Origin: Escherichia coli
GTDB lineage: Bacteria; Pseudomonadota; Gammaproteobacteria; Enterobacterales; Enterobacteriaceae
DNA length: 64,000 nucleotides
Strand: one strand, 5' to 3'
Assembly (NCBI RefSeq): GCF_003334355.1
Contig: NZ_QOWP01000010.1
Part shown: positions 2,386-38,785 of the stretch, piece by piece
Numbering within the stretch: the stretch's first letter is position 1
Layout: each line of letters begins with the position of its first letter
Notes under the pieces: model-generated
Told to the model about the DNA's origin: nothing
Database searches by the model: none
What the model saw: only the letters and a program-made list of their open reading frames with translations
Position numbers and translations under genes: made by a program

Positions 2386-3576
2386 TTACAGCACTGCCAC
2401 AATCGCTTCGCACAGCGGAGCCATGTTATCTGGTGTCATCCCGGCCACATTTACGCGACCAGAAGCAACCGCATATACGCCAAACTCTTCGCGCAGACGC
2501 AGCACTTGTTCTTTTGTCAGGCCACTGAAGGAGAACATGCCGTTCTGTTTGATGATAAAGCTGAAGTCGCGGTTTGCGCCTTTTTCCTGCAGCGTATTGA
2601 CGAACAACTGACGCATACGCTGAATACGCTGGCGCATATCAGTCAGCTCTTGTTCCCAAATCGCACGTAACGCATCGTTGCTCAGGATGGTGGCAACAAC
2701 AGAAGCGCCGTGTGCTGGTGGGTTAGAGTAGTTAGCGCGAATCGCCGCTTTCATTTGGCTGAATGCGCGATCAACGGTTTCACTGTCGGCAGCAACCAGA
2801 GTACAAGCGCCAACACGCTCGTTGTACAGGCCAAAGTTTTTAGAGTAGGAACTGGCAACAATCAGCTCTTTATGCATAGCCGCGAAAGCGCGCAGTCCTT
2901 CAGCATCTTCTTCCAGACCACGGGCAAAACCCTGGTAAGCGAAGTCAAACAGCGGTAACCAGCCTTTCTCAACGGAGAGTTGTGCCAGTGTTTGCCATTG
3001 TTCCAGCGTAGGGTCGATACCGGTTGGGTTATGGCAGCAGCCATGGAACAGCACTACGTCGCCAGCCTGAGCTTCATTCAGGCTGTTAATCAGTGCATCG
3101 AAGTCAAGAGTGTGATTTTCCGCATCATAATAAGCGTATTCACGAACTTCCAGACCTGCAGAGTTAAAGACGCTCTTATGGTTCGGCCAGCTTGGGTTGC
3201 TCACCCACACACGCTTAACGCTGGTATTTTTTGCCAGGAAATCGGCAGCCACGCGTAGTGCGCCAGTGCCCCCCGGAGTCTGTGCCGTGCGAGCACGTTT
3301 GTCATTGATCAGGGCGCTACCTTTACCAAACAGCAGTTCCTGAGTGCAGCGACCAAATTCAGGGATGCCGTCAATGCCGAGGTAATTTTTGGTGGTTTCA
3401 TTTTCGAGCAGATACTGTTCAGCCTTTTTCACGCTGGTCAGTACCGGGGTTTTGCCCGTCTCATCTTTATAGACACCAATCCCGAGGTTAATTTTGCCGG
3501 GACGTTCATCGGCACGAAACAGATCGGCCAGGCCCAGAATCGGGTCGGCAGGAGCGGCGGTAATGTTCTCAAACAT
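2386..3576 (-). CDS. aspC: aspartate aminotransferase AspC
   Basis: ORF 396 aa; N-terminus [46 protein letters not shown] recognised as AspC. Confidence 0.97.
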
Positions 3577-3760
3577 GACGAGGTTCCATTATGGTTACAG
3601 AAGGGAAGTCCGCTATCAGGGTAACGGGAGATTTACAAAATTCCAACTATTACTGATGAAAACTCAGGCTGTTTTTGCAAGACGTGAGATTGCTCTGGAA
3701 GGTATAAAAAAAACAGGACCAAAGTCCTGTTTTTTCGGCATTTAACAAAGAGGTGTGCTA

Positions 3761-4849
3761 TTAGAACTGGTAAACGATACCCACAGCAACGGTGTCGTCT
3801 GAACCTACGCCCAGTTTGTTGTCAGAATCGATCTGGTTGATGATGTAGTCAACATAGGTGGACATATTTTTGTTGAAGTAGTAGGTTGCGCCCACTTCAA
3901 AGTAGTTCACCAGATCAACATCACCGATACCTTCTACGTCTTTCGCTTTAGATTTGGTGTAAGCGATGGACGGACGCAGACCGAAATCGAACTGGTATTG
4001 CGCAACTAACAGAACGTCTTGCGTTTTGTTGGCGAAGCCGCTGGTGTTTGTAAATTTATTAGTAATCGGCGTAGCGTTACGGGTTTCACCGTAGTTCGCT
4101 GCCAGGTAGATGTTGTTCGCGTCGTACTTCAGACCAGTAGCCCACTGTTCAGCTTTTTTACCGTTGCCAAGAGGTTGAGCTTCTTGCAGGTTGGTACGGT
4201 CAGCTGCACCATAAGCACCAACGATACCAAAGCCTTCGTATTCGTAGCTGATAGAACCGCCAACACCGTCGCCGTTAGAGCGGCGTGCAGTGTCACGCTC
4301 GTTTTTACCCAGGTACTGAACAGCGAAGTTCAGGCCATCAACCAGACCAAAGAAGTTGGAGTTACGATAGGTAGCAACGCCGCCAACACGACCAACGAAG
4401 AAGTCATCGCTGTATGCAGTATCACCACCAAATTCTGGCAGCATATCGGTGTAACCCAGTGCATCATAAACCACACCGTAGTTACGGCCGTAATCGAAAG
4501 AACCAATGTCAGCGTATTTAAGACCCGCGAATGCCAGACGCGTTTTGTTACCAGTTTGAGCGTCAGCGCCTTCAGAGTTGTTACCCTGGAAGTTATATTC
4601 CCACTGACCATAACCGGTCAGATCGGAATTGATTTGTGTTTCCCCTTTAAAACCAAGACGGGCATAAGTTTTGTCGCCGTTTCCGCCGTAACTGTTTACA
4701 CCATTGTCTTTAGAAAAATAATGCAGACCGACAGCTTTACCGTACAGATCTACTTTGTTGCCATCTTTGTTATAGATTTCTGCAGCGTTTGCAGTACCTG
4801 CTACTAACAGAGCAGGGACGATCACTGCCAGAATATTGCGCTTCATCAT
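3761..4849 (-). CDS. ompF: outer membrane porin OmpF
   Basis: ORF 362 aa; signal peptide [22 protein letters not shown] followed by [16 protein letters not shown]; C-terminal …VGIVYQF. Confidence 0.98.
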
Positions 4850-5345
4850 TATTTATTACCCTCATGGTTTTTTTTATGACACCTGCCACTGCCGTCAATA
4901 AGTTCTGTCAATAAAAATTTACGGAGCTATTGATGAGAGTTTGGTGTCTTTATGTGTCTGCAGGCATCTTTCCATTCAAACTAACGTTTCGCTACCGTGA
5001 AAGTGCTACAAAGATAAAGATTTGGTTTCAAAAAGAAAAAATATGTAACCAAAAGTAAAATTTAAGGAACTTTGTGAACACCGTCATATTTCCATAGAAG
5101 CGTGATGATATTTACAGCAATTTTTATCTATTTATATGATTTCCTTATATTTAAATTAACTAAACGGAAATTTTGTTTCTGATGGAAACTTTATCGACCT
5201 GGCACTAAATCCTCGTTCAGACATCCAGAATGCCAAAAAATAGTATGAAAATTGTGCTATCAGCTAAGAAAAAACTAATCCGCAATAAGAATCCAGGTTA
5301 TTTTTTGTGCGTAAATGTTGCAATGTAATATTCCGTAACAGGATG
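4850..5345 (-). promoter_or_regulatory. extended ompF 5' UTR and upstream regulatory region (OmpR/IHF-controlled promoter; the 5' UTR is the MicF target)
   Basis: about 600-bp AT-rich non-coding gap upstream of ompF; contains a recognisable OmpR F1 site; extent approximate. Confidence 0.6.
5040..5059 (-). promoter_or_regulatory. OmpR binding site F1 of the ompF promoter
   Basis: minus-strand sequence TTTACTTTTGGTTACATATT (plus strand aatatgtaaccaaaagtaaa) matches the published F1 site. Confidence 0.6.
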
Positions 5346-5408
5346 ATCGTTATGGCGGGGTTGCAAATAGATTGCTTGACTTAACAAACAGATAACTTGA
5401 CAGAAAGG

Positions 5409-5440
5409 ATAAAAAAGAGCCAGCAGGCGCTGGCTCTTTG
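5409..5440 (-). terminator. intrinsic terminator of asnS
   Basis: hairpin agagccagc-aggcg-ctggctct with A6 upstream on the plus strand (U-tract on the minus strand), about 10 nt past the asnS stop. Confidence 0.6.
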
Positions 5441-5450
5441 AGGAAGAAAA

Positions 5451-6851
5451 TCAGAAGCTGGCGTTGCGCGGAGTACGTGGGAACGGAATCACATCACGCA
5501 CGTTTTGCACGCCAGTTACGTAAGCAATCAGGCGTTCAAAACCAAGACCGAAACCTGAATGCGGAACAGTACCGTAGCGACGCAGATCGCGATACCACCA
5601 GTAATCTTCTTTATTCAGGCCCATTTCCAGCATACGCTCGTCCAGAACGTCCAGACGTTCTTCACGCTGGGAGCCACCAATGATCTCACCGATGCCCGGA
5701 GCCAGAACGTCCATAGCCGCAACGGTTTTACCGTCTTCGTTGAGGCGCATATAGAACGCTTTAATATCTTTCGGATAGTTTTTAACCACTACCGGTGCTT
5801 TAAAGTGTTCTTCCGCCAGATAACGCTCATGCTCAGAAGAGAGATCGACGCCCCAGTAAACCGGGTTTTCAAACTTCCTGCCGCAGTTTTCGAGAATGGT
5901 CACTGCGTCGGTGTAATCCACCTGCGCGAAATCGGCCTCAATGAAGCGTTCCAGACGTGAAACGGCATCTTTATCTACGCGTTCAGCGAAGAATTTCATG
6001 TCGTCTGCGCGTTCTTCGAGAACCGCTTTGAAGACATATTTCAGCATGGCTTCAGCCAGACCCGCGATATCGTTCAGGTTAGCAAACGCCACTTCCGGCT
6101 CCAGCATCCAGAACTCCGCCAGGTGACGGCTGGTGTTGGAGTTTTCAGCACGGAAAGTCGGGCCGAAGGTATAAATTTTGGATAATGCGCAAGCGTAGGT
6201 TTCGCCGTTCAACTGGCCAGATACGGTCAGGAAAGACTCTTTACCAAAGAAGTCTTTGTCGAAATCCACTTTGCCCTGATCGTTACGCGGCAGATTTTCC
6301 AGATCCAGCGTAGAAACGCGGAACATTTCGCCAGCCCCTTCGGTATCAGACGCAGTAATCAGTGGCGTTGAAACCCAGAAGAATCCCTGCTCGTTAAAGA
6401 AGCGATGCAGCGCCTGCGCCAGCGTATGGCGAACGCGCGCGACGGCACCAATCAGGTTTGTGCGCGGACGCAGGTGAGCGACTTCACGCAGATACTCAAT
6501 GCTGTGGCGTTTTGCCGCCATCGGGTAAGTGTCTGGATCTTCAACCCAACCAGCAACTTCAACCTTGCTGGCCTGAATTTCAAATTGTTGCCCCTGGCCC
6601 GGCGACGCCACGACTTTACCCGTCACAATGACCGAGCAACCGGTGGTCAGACGCAGGACGTCTTCATTGTAATTGGGCAGAGAATTATTGATGACAGCCT
6701 GTACAGGATCAAAGCAGGAACCGTCATAAACGGCGAGGAAGGAGATGCCAGCTTTTGAATCTCGGCGGGTACGTACCCATCCGCGTACGGTGACTTCGCT
6801 GTCAACGGCTACGCGGCCCTGGAGTACGTCGGCTACAGGCACAACGCTCAT
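5451..6851 (-). CDS. asnS: asparagine--tRNA ligase AsnS
   Basis: ORF 5451..6896; recognised start [30 protein letters not shown] at the internal ATG (6851); class II aaRS motifs (…FRAE…GFGLGFERL…). Confidence 0.95.
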
Positions 6852-6981
6852 AATATTCTCTCTGTTAATAGTCGGAAAAAATAAACACTTGTCCACCCGT
6901 AAATGGGGGGATACCTATGTTACCTGGCATCTGCAATCAGACAAGCAGAATTCGCAAATGCAGCGAAAGATTTCGGAATTA

Positions 6982-7011
6982 AAGGTAAAAAAAGGGAGCC
7001 GATTAGCTCCC
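6982..7011 (-). terminator. candidate intrinsic terminator of pncB
   Basis: hairpin gggagcc-gatta-gctccc with an A-run upstream on the plus strand, immediately past the pncB stop. Confidence 0.45.
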
Positions 7012-7019
7012 TGATGATA

Positions 7020-8222
7020 TTAACTGGCTTTTTTAATATGCGGAAGGTCGAACGCTTTGCGCAGCGCCCGAACAAACGCTTTATCGTGGCAGATAGTTTT
7101 GCCAGGGCTGTCAGAAAGTTTCGCCACCGGTTTACCGTTACACTCTACCAACTTAATCACAATATTCAGGGGTTTTACCTGGGGGATATCGCAGGTCAGG
7201 CGAGTCCCAATACCAAAACTTAATTGCACGCGGGAAGAGAAGTGGCGGTATAGCTCAACCGCTTTGCGTAAATCCAGATTGTCAGAGAAAACCAGCGTTT
7301 TACTCTGTGGATCAATTCCCAGCTTTTCATAATGTGCAATGGCTTTTTCACCCCATTCAACCGGGTCGCCAGAGTCATGACGCAGGCCCTGATACCGACT
7401 AGCGAACTCGACACCGAAATCACGCAGGAAAGCATCCATAGTGATGCAGTCGGTTAATGCAATGCCAAGTTGGTCGGGATACTCTTCCAGCCAGGCAGCA
7501 AGTGCAGCTCGCTGGCTGTTGGCTAGATCCGGGCTGATTTGCTGATGTGCCTGGAACCATTCGTGTGCCTGTGTTCCCATCGGCGTGAGGGAAAGCCGAC
7601 GCGCCAGATCGTAGTTGCTGGTGCCCACAAACCAGGATTCCTGTTGCAGACGCTTAACGATGGTTTCTTGTACTTCGCGAGAAAAACGGCGACGGGTGCC
7701 AAAATCCATCAGATGGAAGCGCGACATATCAAGACCGGCGGTTAACGCCGAGAAGTCGACTAATTTGCTTTCCAGCGTGTCGAGGGCTTGCGCAACGTCG
7801 GCCTGCGGTGAGCGATAGCGATGTACCATTTCACTGATAACCGCCAGCAAAGGAACTTCCCAGAGGATGACTTCACGCCACGGGCCGCTTAAACGAATAT
7901 CCAGCTTGCCATTATCGTTGGACACGGTGACTTGTTCCGGGTTAAAGCGGAACTCGCGTAACCAGTTAAGATAGTCGGCCTTAAAGAAAGGCAGGGCAGA
8001 AAGCCACTGATATTCATCATCCTGCAGGCGCAGGTGCTGCATCGCCTGAACCTGTTCACGAATAGCATCGGCATAAATACCCAGCAGATCGTCACCTCGG
8101 CAACGAAACTCCGCCGCGACATGCACATCGTAATAGTGATGAAACACGGCTTGCTGCATATGCAACTTATAAGCATCTGTATCCAGCAACGAGTGCAGAA
8201 CAGGAGAAGCGAATTGTGTCAT
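7020..8222 (-). CDS. pncB: nicotinate phosphoribosyltransferase PncB
   Basis: ORF 7020..8270; recognised N-terminus [32 protein letters not shown] at ATG 8222; 400 aa. Confidence 0.95.
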
Positions 8223-38052: not shown

Positions 38053-38275
38053 GATGTAAAGTCTACAACGTAGTTGAAAACTTACAAGTGTGAACTCCGT
38101 CAGGCATATGAAAAAAAAGTCTTGTATAAGGTATGTTTAATCTTTTTTGTCAGCGACAATTTACAGAAGAGAATCGCGGAAACCGCTTCAGACAAGCCTC
38201 CGCAAGGAAAATTAGTCACGACTGAAAGCATTGGCTGGGCGACAAAAAAAGTTCCAGGATTAATCCTAAATTTAC

Positions 38276-38785
38276 TTAATGATACAAATTAGAGTGAATT
38301 TTTAGCCCGGAAAGTTGTCTCGTGGCGTGAGAGGATGCGCTTACCGGACGCATAATAAACCCCATAGCGTTACCTTCATTTGCCGCATCAACAAGTTCAG
38401 CATGCTCTTCTTCAGTCAAATCATCTGCCAACCAACCGATCACCACACTGTAATTGCCCGTGCGTAAAGCGCGAACCATTGACTCCACAGTGTGGCAAGG
38501 GGAGAGCTGGCTAATCTGCATTACTTTCGTTAAGGGTAGCCCAGATGCCTGAACCCATTCCCGACTCAGTTTTTGTTGCGGTGTTAACCAGAGTTGCCAG
38601 CGCGATTGCTGACCGAGTTGCTGTAACAATGGCAACAGTAGAAGTTGCGTCATCATGGGCTGATCTTCGCGATAGACAACTTCACTGATAAGCCCGGCTG
38701 TAGTGTTTTCCGTAGAGACACGCGCAATTTTACTTGCTGCGGATGAGAACGACGAAGAACGATGTGCATAGCCTGAAGTGTACAT
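38276..38785 (-). CDS. sulA: SOS cell-division inhibitor SulA
   Basis: ORF 38276..38791; recognised start [38 protein letters not shown]; 169 aa. Confidence 0.95.

Follow-up and report, generated by a model that had tools for sequence, protein, structure and literature searches.

The 601-bp asnS-ompF gap of a non-K-12 Escherichia coli chromosome read as the cis-regulatory region of ompF and compared across Enterobacterales

Results

The window (i.e., the whole stretch of DNA that was analysed, 64,000 nucleotides) is a segment of a non-K-12 E. coli chromosome that aligns collinearly with an annotated chromosome of E. coli (identity 99.7-99.9%) and is 99.0% identical to the K-12 MG1655 interval 984000-990500. 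The genes around the gap described here are aspC, ompF, asnS and pncB, all four on the minus strand, and the order aspC-ompF-asnS-pncB holds in annotated genomes. Boundaries of coding sequences were taken over from RefSeq, namely from the annotations of K-12 and of a genome 99.9% identical to the window. The OmpF protein of the window is identical to K-12 OmpF at 358 of 362 residues, with 4 residues different, and the asnS stop codon is TGA in the window versus TAA in K-12. With these two genes as its flanks, the gap is the upstream region of ompF, as an earlier note on this DNA had proposed.

The same note had described a strongly AT-rich gap of approximately 600 bp, unusually long and among the longest non-coding stretches of the window. 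The interval between ompF and asnS (4850-5450) measured 601 bp, compared with 602 bp for its K-12 counterpart, and in fact exceeded every other intergenic gap of the window, the runners-up being 426, 356 and 355 bp. The GC content of the gap was 34.3% versus 50.9% for the window, and it dropped to 26.5% at 5000-5199. Of 5,426 complete E. coli genomes, 5,425 had the gap, in one copy each and at 95-100% identity. Features assigned to the gap and its flanks are listed in Table 1.

Table 1. Coordinates in the window of the two flanking genes and of the features assigned to the asnS-ompF gap, with the basis of each assignment
Feature	Position	Strand	Basis
asnS CDS, asparagine--tRNA ligase (upstream neighbour)	5451..6851	-	ORF and RefSeq annotation of collinear genomes
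asnS intrinsic terminator (hairpin 5439-5414, then T run)	5404..5439	-	terminator scan
Enterobacteriaceae-specific distal module, approximately 260 bp, carries F4	5157..5413	.	profile searches
OmpR box F4, GTTACGGAATATTACATTGC (weak distal site, repression at high osmolarity)	5339-5320	-	exact published 20-mer; matrix rank 21
Block A, candidate conserved upstream element, ATAAGnAAnTCATATAnATAG (about -191..-168)	5127..5150	-	conservation
CRP-like box, block GAAaTTTGA-N6-TCACAAAGTTCC	5066..5092	-	cross-species conservation and literature position
OmpR box F1, TTTACTTTTGGTTACATATT (high-affinity site)	5059-5040	-	exact published 20-mer; matrix rank 1
OmpR box F2, TTTTCTTTTTGAAACCAAAT	5039-5020	-	exact published 20-mer; matrix rank 93
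OmpR box F3, CTTTATCTTTGTAGCACTTT	5019-5000	-	exact published 20-mer; matrix rank 18
Core sigma-70 promoter (-35 TAGCGA 4994-4989, 17-bp spacer, -10 AAAGAT 4971-4966)	4966..4994	-	read from sequence
ompF mRNA leader, 110 nt (predicted +1 at 4959)	4850..4959	-	K-12 match except 4926 C/T
MicF sRNA target over Shine-Dalgarno and AUG	4839..4866	-	duplex prediction and published pairing site
ompF CDS, porin OmpF (regulated gene)	3761..4849	-	ORF and RefSeq annotation of collinear genomes

Published sequences of OmpR boxes were taken from Additional file 3 of Gao et al. (2011), in which the ompF sites are those of Yoshida (2006). The minus-strand sequence that the earlier note had recognised as F1 is the published F1 box, and the further sites that it had expected (F2, F3 and a distal F4) were all present as exact matches at the published spacing. 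Each of the four boxes had a single exact occurrence in the window. F1, F2 and F3 form contiguous 20-mers that abut the -35 region, and the distance from F4 to F1 is exactly 260 bp, which matches the literature value; it was on finding F2-F4 at their expected spacing that the note had let its reading depend. Against a chance expectation of approximately 1e-7 for an exact 20-mer in 128 kb of two-strand sequence, the exact boxes are in the window because of descent, the gap being shared with nearly all complete E. coli genomes.

The matrix scan suggested in the note was performed with an OmpR matrix built from the 17 boxes of the Gao table that are not from ompF (boxes of ompC included), so that circularity was avoided. 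When applied to both strands of the 64-kb window (127,962 positions), this independent matrix recovered all four boxes at the ranks given in Table 1, with scores that extended from 20.3 bits for F1 down to a weak 6.6 bits for F2.

The hexamers TAGCGA and AAAGAT, the -35 and -10 elements of ompF in its established promoter numbering, belong to a core promoter that is identical to that of K-12 and has a conservation of 0.76-0.95 within the family. The weak -35 fits dependence on an activator. The start of transcription probably lies at 4959, as judged from the numbering of the F sites with F3 ending at -41. The leader that would follow contains the Shine-Dalgarno sequence GAGGG (4863-4859) and had a mean identity of 0.75-1.0 in 38 Enterobacteriaceae. 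Its long-range stem, in which GACACC (4948-4943) pairs with GGTGTC (4883-4878), was kept in 18-21 of 21 diverse Enterobacterales, and compensatory changes were noted in the inner helix of the leader alignment. Both the leader and the stem of the window agree with a conserved ompF leader of approximately 111 nt and its stem-loop that have been published (PMC1489923).

Predictions of the duplex with full-length MicF were noisy and gave better scores to other tiles of the window, so the 5' 33 nt of K-12 micF were used instead. With this 5' end, the predicted duplex at 4866-4839 (-27.1 kcal/mol) was the best of 3,196 tiles (mean -10.6, sd 3.5) and coincided with the Shine-Dalgarno/AUG region that is the published target of MicF pairing (PMC1489923 and another paper). 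At the far end of the gap, where the earlier note had seen a terminator hairpin of asnS, the terminator scan placed a hairpin with an 11-bp stem, 6 G-C pairs and a 4-nt loop. The stem (GCCAGC...GCTGGC) has a conservation of 0.6-0.7 within the family and is similar to the terminators of families with short gaps.

The CRP-like box has its core, TATGA-N6-TCACA, at 5088-5073, centred at about -121.5, with 1 mismatch to TGTGA-N6-TCACA. Conservation of the block was 0.8-0.9 in 38 species, TCACAAAGTT being invariant or nearly so, and the block was present in the short-gap families as well. Matches to the CRP consensus in the window were at chance level (4 versus 2.2 expected); the box is supported by its conservation and by published work. 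A CRP site footprinted with DNase I in Yersinia pestis ompF occupies -131..-109, the same promoter-relative position as the CRP-like box. According to a paper of 2007, direct control of E. coli ompF by CRP had not been reported up to then; by 2011, E. coli ompF appeared in a list of known CRP targets that genomic SELEX had recovered.

Comparison of the gap with that of K-12 revealed 23 small differences, all of them outside the mapped sites. Two segments were identical to K-12, one at 5099-4927 with the CRP-like box, F1-F3, the promoter and the start of the leader, and the other at 5406-5309 with F4 and its flank. The differences were in the spacer (5308-5293, 5261, 5215-5206, 5125 and 5100-5099), at leader position 4926, and at the terminator (loop and flank). 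Among the 5,426 E. coli genomes, identity of at least 99% to the window was seen in 10% for the spacer 5160-5292, which was the most variable part of the gap within the species, in 40% for the core 4960-5092 and in 61% for the F4 segment. The K-12-type 60-mer of F1-F3 was exact in only 1,652 of the E. coli genomes. Variation of the core among six E. coli strains was confined to the 3' half of F1, with F2, F3, the CRP-like box and the -35 and -10 elements invariant. The F1 of the window is the K-12-type allele, from which other E. coli lineages differ by 1-4 changes in this half; for example, F1 of an O25:H4 (ST131) strain reads TTTACTTTTTGTCACACATT. It was also observed that IS1 can split the ompF control region in a clinical isolate.

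The gap was followed across the order in species-representative genomes, which were scanned with a plain pattern in the OmpF signal-peptide codons to avoid a bias toward conserved promoters. The scan yielded 120 loci, and asnS was directly upstream of ompF in 109 of them. Gap length was sharply bimodal by family. The median in 45 species of Enterobacteriaceae was 605 bp (most gaps 587-618 bp), as opposed to approximately 300 bp in Yersiniaceae (296-303 bp), Erwiniaceae (261-310 bp), Pectobacteriaceae (291-314 bp) and Hafniaceae (301-327 bp); other values were 528-557 bp in Providencia, 650 bp in Moellerella and 306 bp in Arsenophonus. The gap is therefore unusually long in this window, as the earlier note had said, but not among Enterobacteriaceae, for which approximately 600 bp is the norm. 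A gap of this length is a trait of the family Enterobacteriaceae and not of the order.

A profile built from the short-gap families aligned to positions 5156-4853 of the window only. In E. coli, the proximal half is thus the counterpart of what makes up the whole gap in the sister families, and what is left up to the terminator is a distal module that carries F4. Profile searches with the distal module revealed no homolog outside Enterobacteriaceae and none within the proximal half, and similar searches for a shared origin of the module and the long gaps of Providencia and Moellerella gave no match. The restriction of the module to one family is in agreement with, and extends, the published absence from Y. 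pestis of both F4 and repression at high osmolarity.

These observations raise the possibility that the gap owes its length to its history and not to dense regulation, i.e., that the proximal 300 bp or so are the ancestral and fully functional control region, and that the distal 260 bp or so are an old insertion in the ancestor of Enterobacteriaceae, mostly spacer, in which F4 arose secondarily in some lineages. The division of gap lengths by family and the limits of the short-gap profile point this way, as do the low conservation of the distal module (0.23-0.5 over 5250-5160, the least conserved part of the gap), its variability within the species, and the finding that F4 is of full quality in just 12 of 39 species. 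Other features of the module argue against mere spacer. Its length is tightly held in most species, and it contains conserved blocks, namely TGTTAC of F4 and three smaller ones at 5310-5300, 5290-5281 and 5260-5251 (conservation 0.76-0.81); moreover, F4 has a published function in vivo in E. coli. Taken by itself as the explanation of the gap, an old insertion is possible, if on balance unlikely; it appears to be partly true and to complement a reading of the gap as the ompF control region more than it replaces it. When compared by eye with the Mar-box consensus, the blocks 5260-5251 and 5310-5300 were poor matches.

An origin of the distal module by tandem duplication, in which a second copy of the proximal promoter decayed after loss of a duplicated porin and F4 is a relic of an F1-F3 array, was also considered. 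Tandem ompF-like genes do occur between ompF and asnS in Photorhabdus and Dickeya undicola, and the length of the distal interval 5413-5157 (257 bp) is near that of the proximal stretch that runs from the CRP box down to the ATG, 243 bp in all. In addition, the asnS terminator of the window resembles those of short gaps, and the conserved block A (Table 1) lies upstream of the terminator in Erwiniaceae, implying rearrangement. Profile searches performed in both directions nevertheless revealed the terminator as the sole similarity between distal and proximal sequences (secondary matches at E > 0.009 and, in the reverse direction, none at E <= 1), and F4 would be offset by 5-6 bp from the boxes that a duplication predicts. 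An origin by duplication is thus unsupported by the negative searches, and we regard it as very improbable.

Conservation of the OmpR boxes differed between the two parts of the gap. The leader, the core promoter and F1-F3 were strongly conserved in 38 species of Enterobacteriaceae, the core GTAGCAC of F3 being near-invariant, and F1-F3 were also conserved in five other families. Conservation of F4 in the same 38 species was only moderate (0.56-0.65). Its 5' half, TGTTAC, was nearly universal, and its 3' half, ATTAC, was seen only in the sequence of the window, in E. albertii and in one Citrobacter. The 12 species counted above are those in which a full-quality OmpR box at the position of F4 stood above the local background. 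With a full-quality F4 in no more than about one third of the Enterobacteriaceae species, repression by a loop may be limited to certain lineages.

That the gap hides an unannotated gene for a small protein or small RNA was suggested by an old annotation of E. coli CFT073, in which a hypothetical gene of 61 aa was placed here (PMC1489923, Figure 1 legend), and by one sigma-70-like match on the plus strand at 5111-5140. The number of such promoter-like matches (1 versus 2.2 expected) and the location of the -35 of this match in a poorly conserved stretch speak against a hidden gene, and current RefSeq annotates nothing at this place in either K-12 or the close relative. No Rfam family was found at E <= 1 in positions 3500-7100, and the longest ORF of the gap (42 aa, TTG start) is antisense over F1-F3, the rest being 32 aa or less. 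With the Rfam and ORF results failing to support it, a hidden gene is hardly credible.

Block A had a conservation of 0.81-0.86 in 38 species of Enterobacteriaceae. In nearly all Enterobacteriaceae and Erwiniaceae, its spacing to TCACAAAG was 62 +/- 1 bp, irrespective of what lay inside: in Erwiniaceae the hairpin of the asnS terminator, in Enterobacteriaceae a sequence that is not conserved. In Erwiniaceae and Pectobacteriaceae, the block followed the asnS stop codon and preceded the terminator.

In the classical model of ompF, IHF sites lie between F4 and F1. An IHF site at ompF was reportedly described by Ramani et al. in 1992 and presumably lies roughly at block A, which may be such a site. 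Compared with the IHF consensus, block A was a poor match with 2 mismatches. A scan with this consensus revealed no discriminating match in 5060-5319 and no enrichment in the window (52 matches versus 54 expected); the sole match in the gap with at most 1 mismatch overlaps F2/F3. No usable coordinates of IHF sites at ompF were obtained from the literature. When compared by eye with consensus sequences for Fur, ArcA and Lrp, block A matched poorly in each case.

The presence of block A in families without F4 means that the block would predate the repression loop of F4. Block A could accordingly be an under-described cis element of ompF that precedes the CRP-like box by 62 +/- 1 bp, or about six turns of the helix, and acts, through IHF or another bending protein, in an ancestral role independent of the loop, the distal module having been added outside it later for osmotic repression. 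We offer this scheme, which is drawn from conservation and spacing, as a rather doubtful one.

Discussion

The 601-bp gap is almost certainly the complete cis-regulatory region of ompF, a classical EnvZ/OmpR promoter on the minus strand, together with the terminator of asnS. The elements of this region were found with exact sequence and spacing and with the conservation noted above. The promoter region itself is already known and is among the most studied of bacterial promoters. In the published model, OmpR at F1-F3 activates transcription and F4 represses it by means of a loop.

Applied to the window, this model would operate as follows. At low osmolarity, modest amounts of OmpR-P would fill the contiguous boxes F1, F2 and F3 (-100 to -41) and bring RNA polymerase to a promoter whose -35 is poor, so that ompF is transcribed from approximately 4959. 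With the larger amounts of OmpR-P present at high osmolarity, the weak F4 site, 260 bp further upstream, would be filled in addition, and OmpR bound at F4 and at F1-F3 would interact, so that the AT-rich and presumably bendable DNA between them loops and the promoter is turned off. An input from the carbon source would be added by the CRP-type box that lies immediately upstream of F1. The stem-loop of the leader and pairing of MicF over the ribosome-binding site would provide a second, post-transcriptional off-switch. We infer occupancy, looping, the start of transcription and the direction of each effect from the K-12 literature.

Compared with known systems, the region is closest to ompF of E. 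coli K-12, which has the same locus and flanks, boxes F1-F3 at -100..-41, F4 at about -380..-361 and a leader targeted by MicF. Y. pestis ompF resembles the window in its tandem OmpR boxes (F1-F2-F3) near the promoter, in a box of CRP type, in its conserved leader and in the position of asnS immediately upstream but, unlike the window, has a gap of approximately 300 bp without the distal module or F4; in that species, high osmolarity induces rather than represses ompF. The ompC/micF promoter of E. coli is likewise controlled by OmpR through three contiguous 20-bp boxes (C1-C2-C3) with half-sites xTTAC / GAAAC. In contrast with ompF, it is without a distal repressing box, shows the opposite osmotic response and is at another chromosomal locus.

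Coordinates are now fixed for eleven regulatory features in the window, which can be used for annotation. The comparative side results (i.e., the distal module, the lineage-limited F4, the phased block and the F1 alleles) are put forward as leads, not as claims. As by-products of modest value for porin regulation and antibiotic permeability, they present the long gap and F4 as family traits, add a polymorphism in F1 and a control region split by IS1, and point to blocks phased at 62 bp. Judged from its intact K-12-type allele, the strain should osmoregulate OmpF normally.

Variation of the ompF control region among E. coli strains

Polymorphism among E. coli strains was evident in F1, the OmpR box at 5040-5059 (loci L127, L128 and L129 of the comparison), and the K-12-type 60-mer that spans F1-F3 was found as an exact match in only 1,652 of 5,426 complete E. 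coli genomes. In the O25:H4 (ST131) strain compared, F1 read TTTACTTTTTGTCACACATT, which includes three changes, all in the 3' half of the box. All six E. coli strains compared had identical F2, F3, CRP-like box and -35/-10 elements. The distal box F4 (5320-5339) was found to vary at position 5323 in its 3' half: of the five other E. coli strains in the comparison, three carried a T>C substitution that converts ATTACATTGC to ATTACACTGC. The exact F4 40-mer was present in 3,752 E. coli genomes.

Differences from K-12 were also noted on either side of these boxes. Position 4926 of the ompF leader, on the loop side of the conserved stem-loop, is C in the window as opposed to T in K-12 and four other E. 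coli strains compared. At the other end of the gap, in region 5440-5453, the asnS stop codon is TGA rather than the TAA of K-12 and small indels distinguish the two sequences in the 11 bp between this codon and the terminator; the terminator loop differs at 5425 (T in the window, C in K-12). The OmpF protein encoded at 3761-4849 differs from that of K-12 at four residues (G48D, E51V, M60K and V115I), three of which are grouped within a short stretch close to the N-terminus.

Conservation and gap length in other genera

Conservation of three blocks of the distal module (Table) was in the 0.76-0.81 range among 38 Enterobacteriaceae species. Much longer asnS-ompF gaps were seen in some members of this family (loci L098, L008, L059, L052, L076 and L039), and these extra-long gaps presumably contain insertions. 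In Dickeya undicola (L067), a tandem pair of ompF-like gene starts was located 3' of asnS, at 970-992 and 2603-2625, a porin duplication that resembles plu1752 of Photorhabdus.

Table. Positions and lengths of conserved blocks, asnS-ompF gaps and elf pseudogenes
Feature	Genome	Position	Strand	Sequence, length or basis
Conserved distal block	Window	5310-5300	minus	GCACAAAAAAT
Conserved distal block	Window	5290-5281	minus	TCTTATTGCG
Conserved distal block	Window	5260-5251	minus	ATAGCACAAT
asnS-ompF gap	Salmonella enterica subsp. arizonae			1,214 bp
asnS-ompF gap	Superficieibacter electus			786 bp
asnS-ompF gap	Citrobacter youngae ATCC 29220			761 bp
asnS-ompF gap	Cedecea			724-758 bp
asnS-ompF gap	Shimwellia			721 bp
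elfG/elfC pseudogenes	L004	12096-15755 (about window 17080-20740)		L004 annotation

Observations elsewhere in the window and in the reference genome L004

The second-ranked match to the OmpR matrix in the entire window, TTTACTTAATGATACAAATT at 38271-38290 on the plus strand (16.5 bits), was located at the 3' end of sulA, where this gene borders the intergenic gap to ompA, and may have arisen by chance. The annotation of the near-identical reference genome L004 lists both elfG and elfC as pseudogenes, with an internal stop and a frameshift.

IS1 insertion in a clinical isolate

An IS1 element was noted inside the ompF control region of E. coli CAVP773, a blood isolate (L003, NZ_CM176349.1). This element, flanked by an 8-bp target duplication that matches window positions 5118-5125, separates the CRP-like box from the conserved block at 5150-5127, and increases the distance from F4 to F1-F3 by approximately 0.77 kb. 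Porin expression in this isolate may be altered by the insertion.
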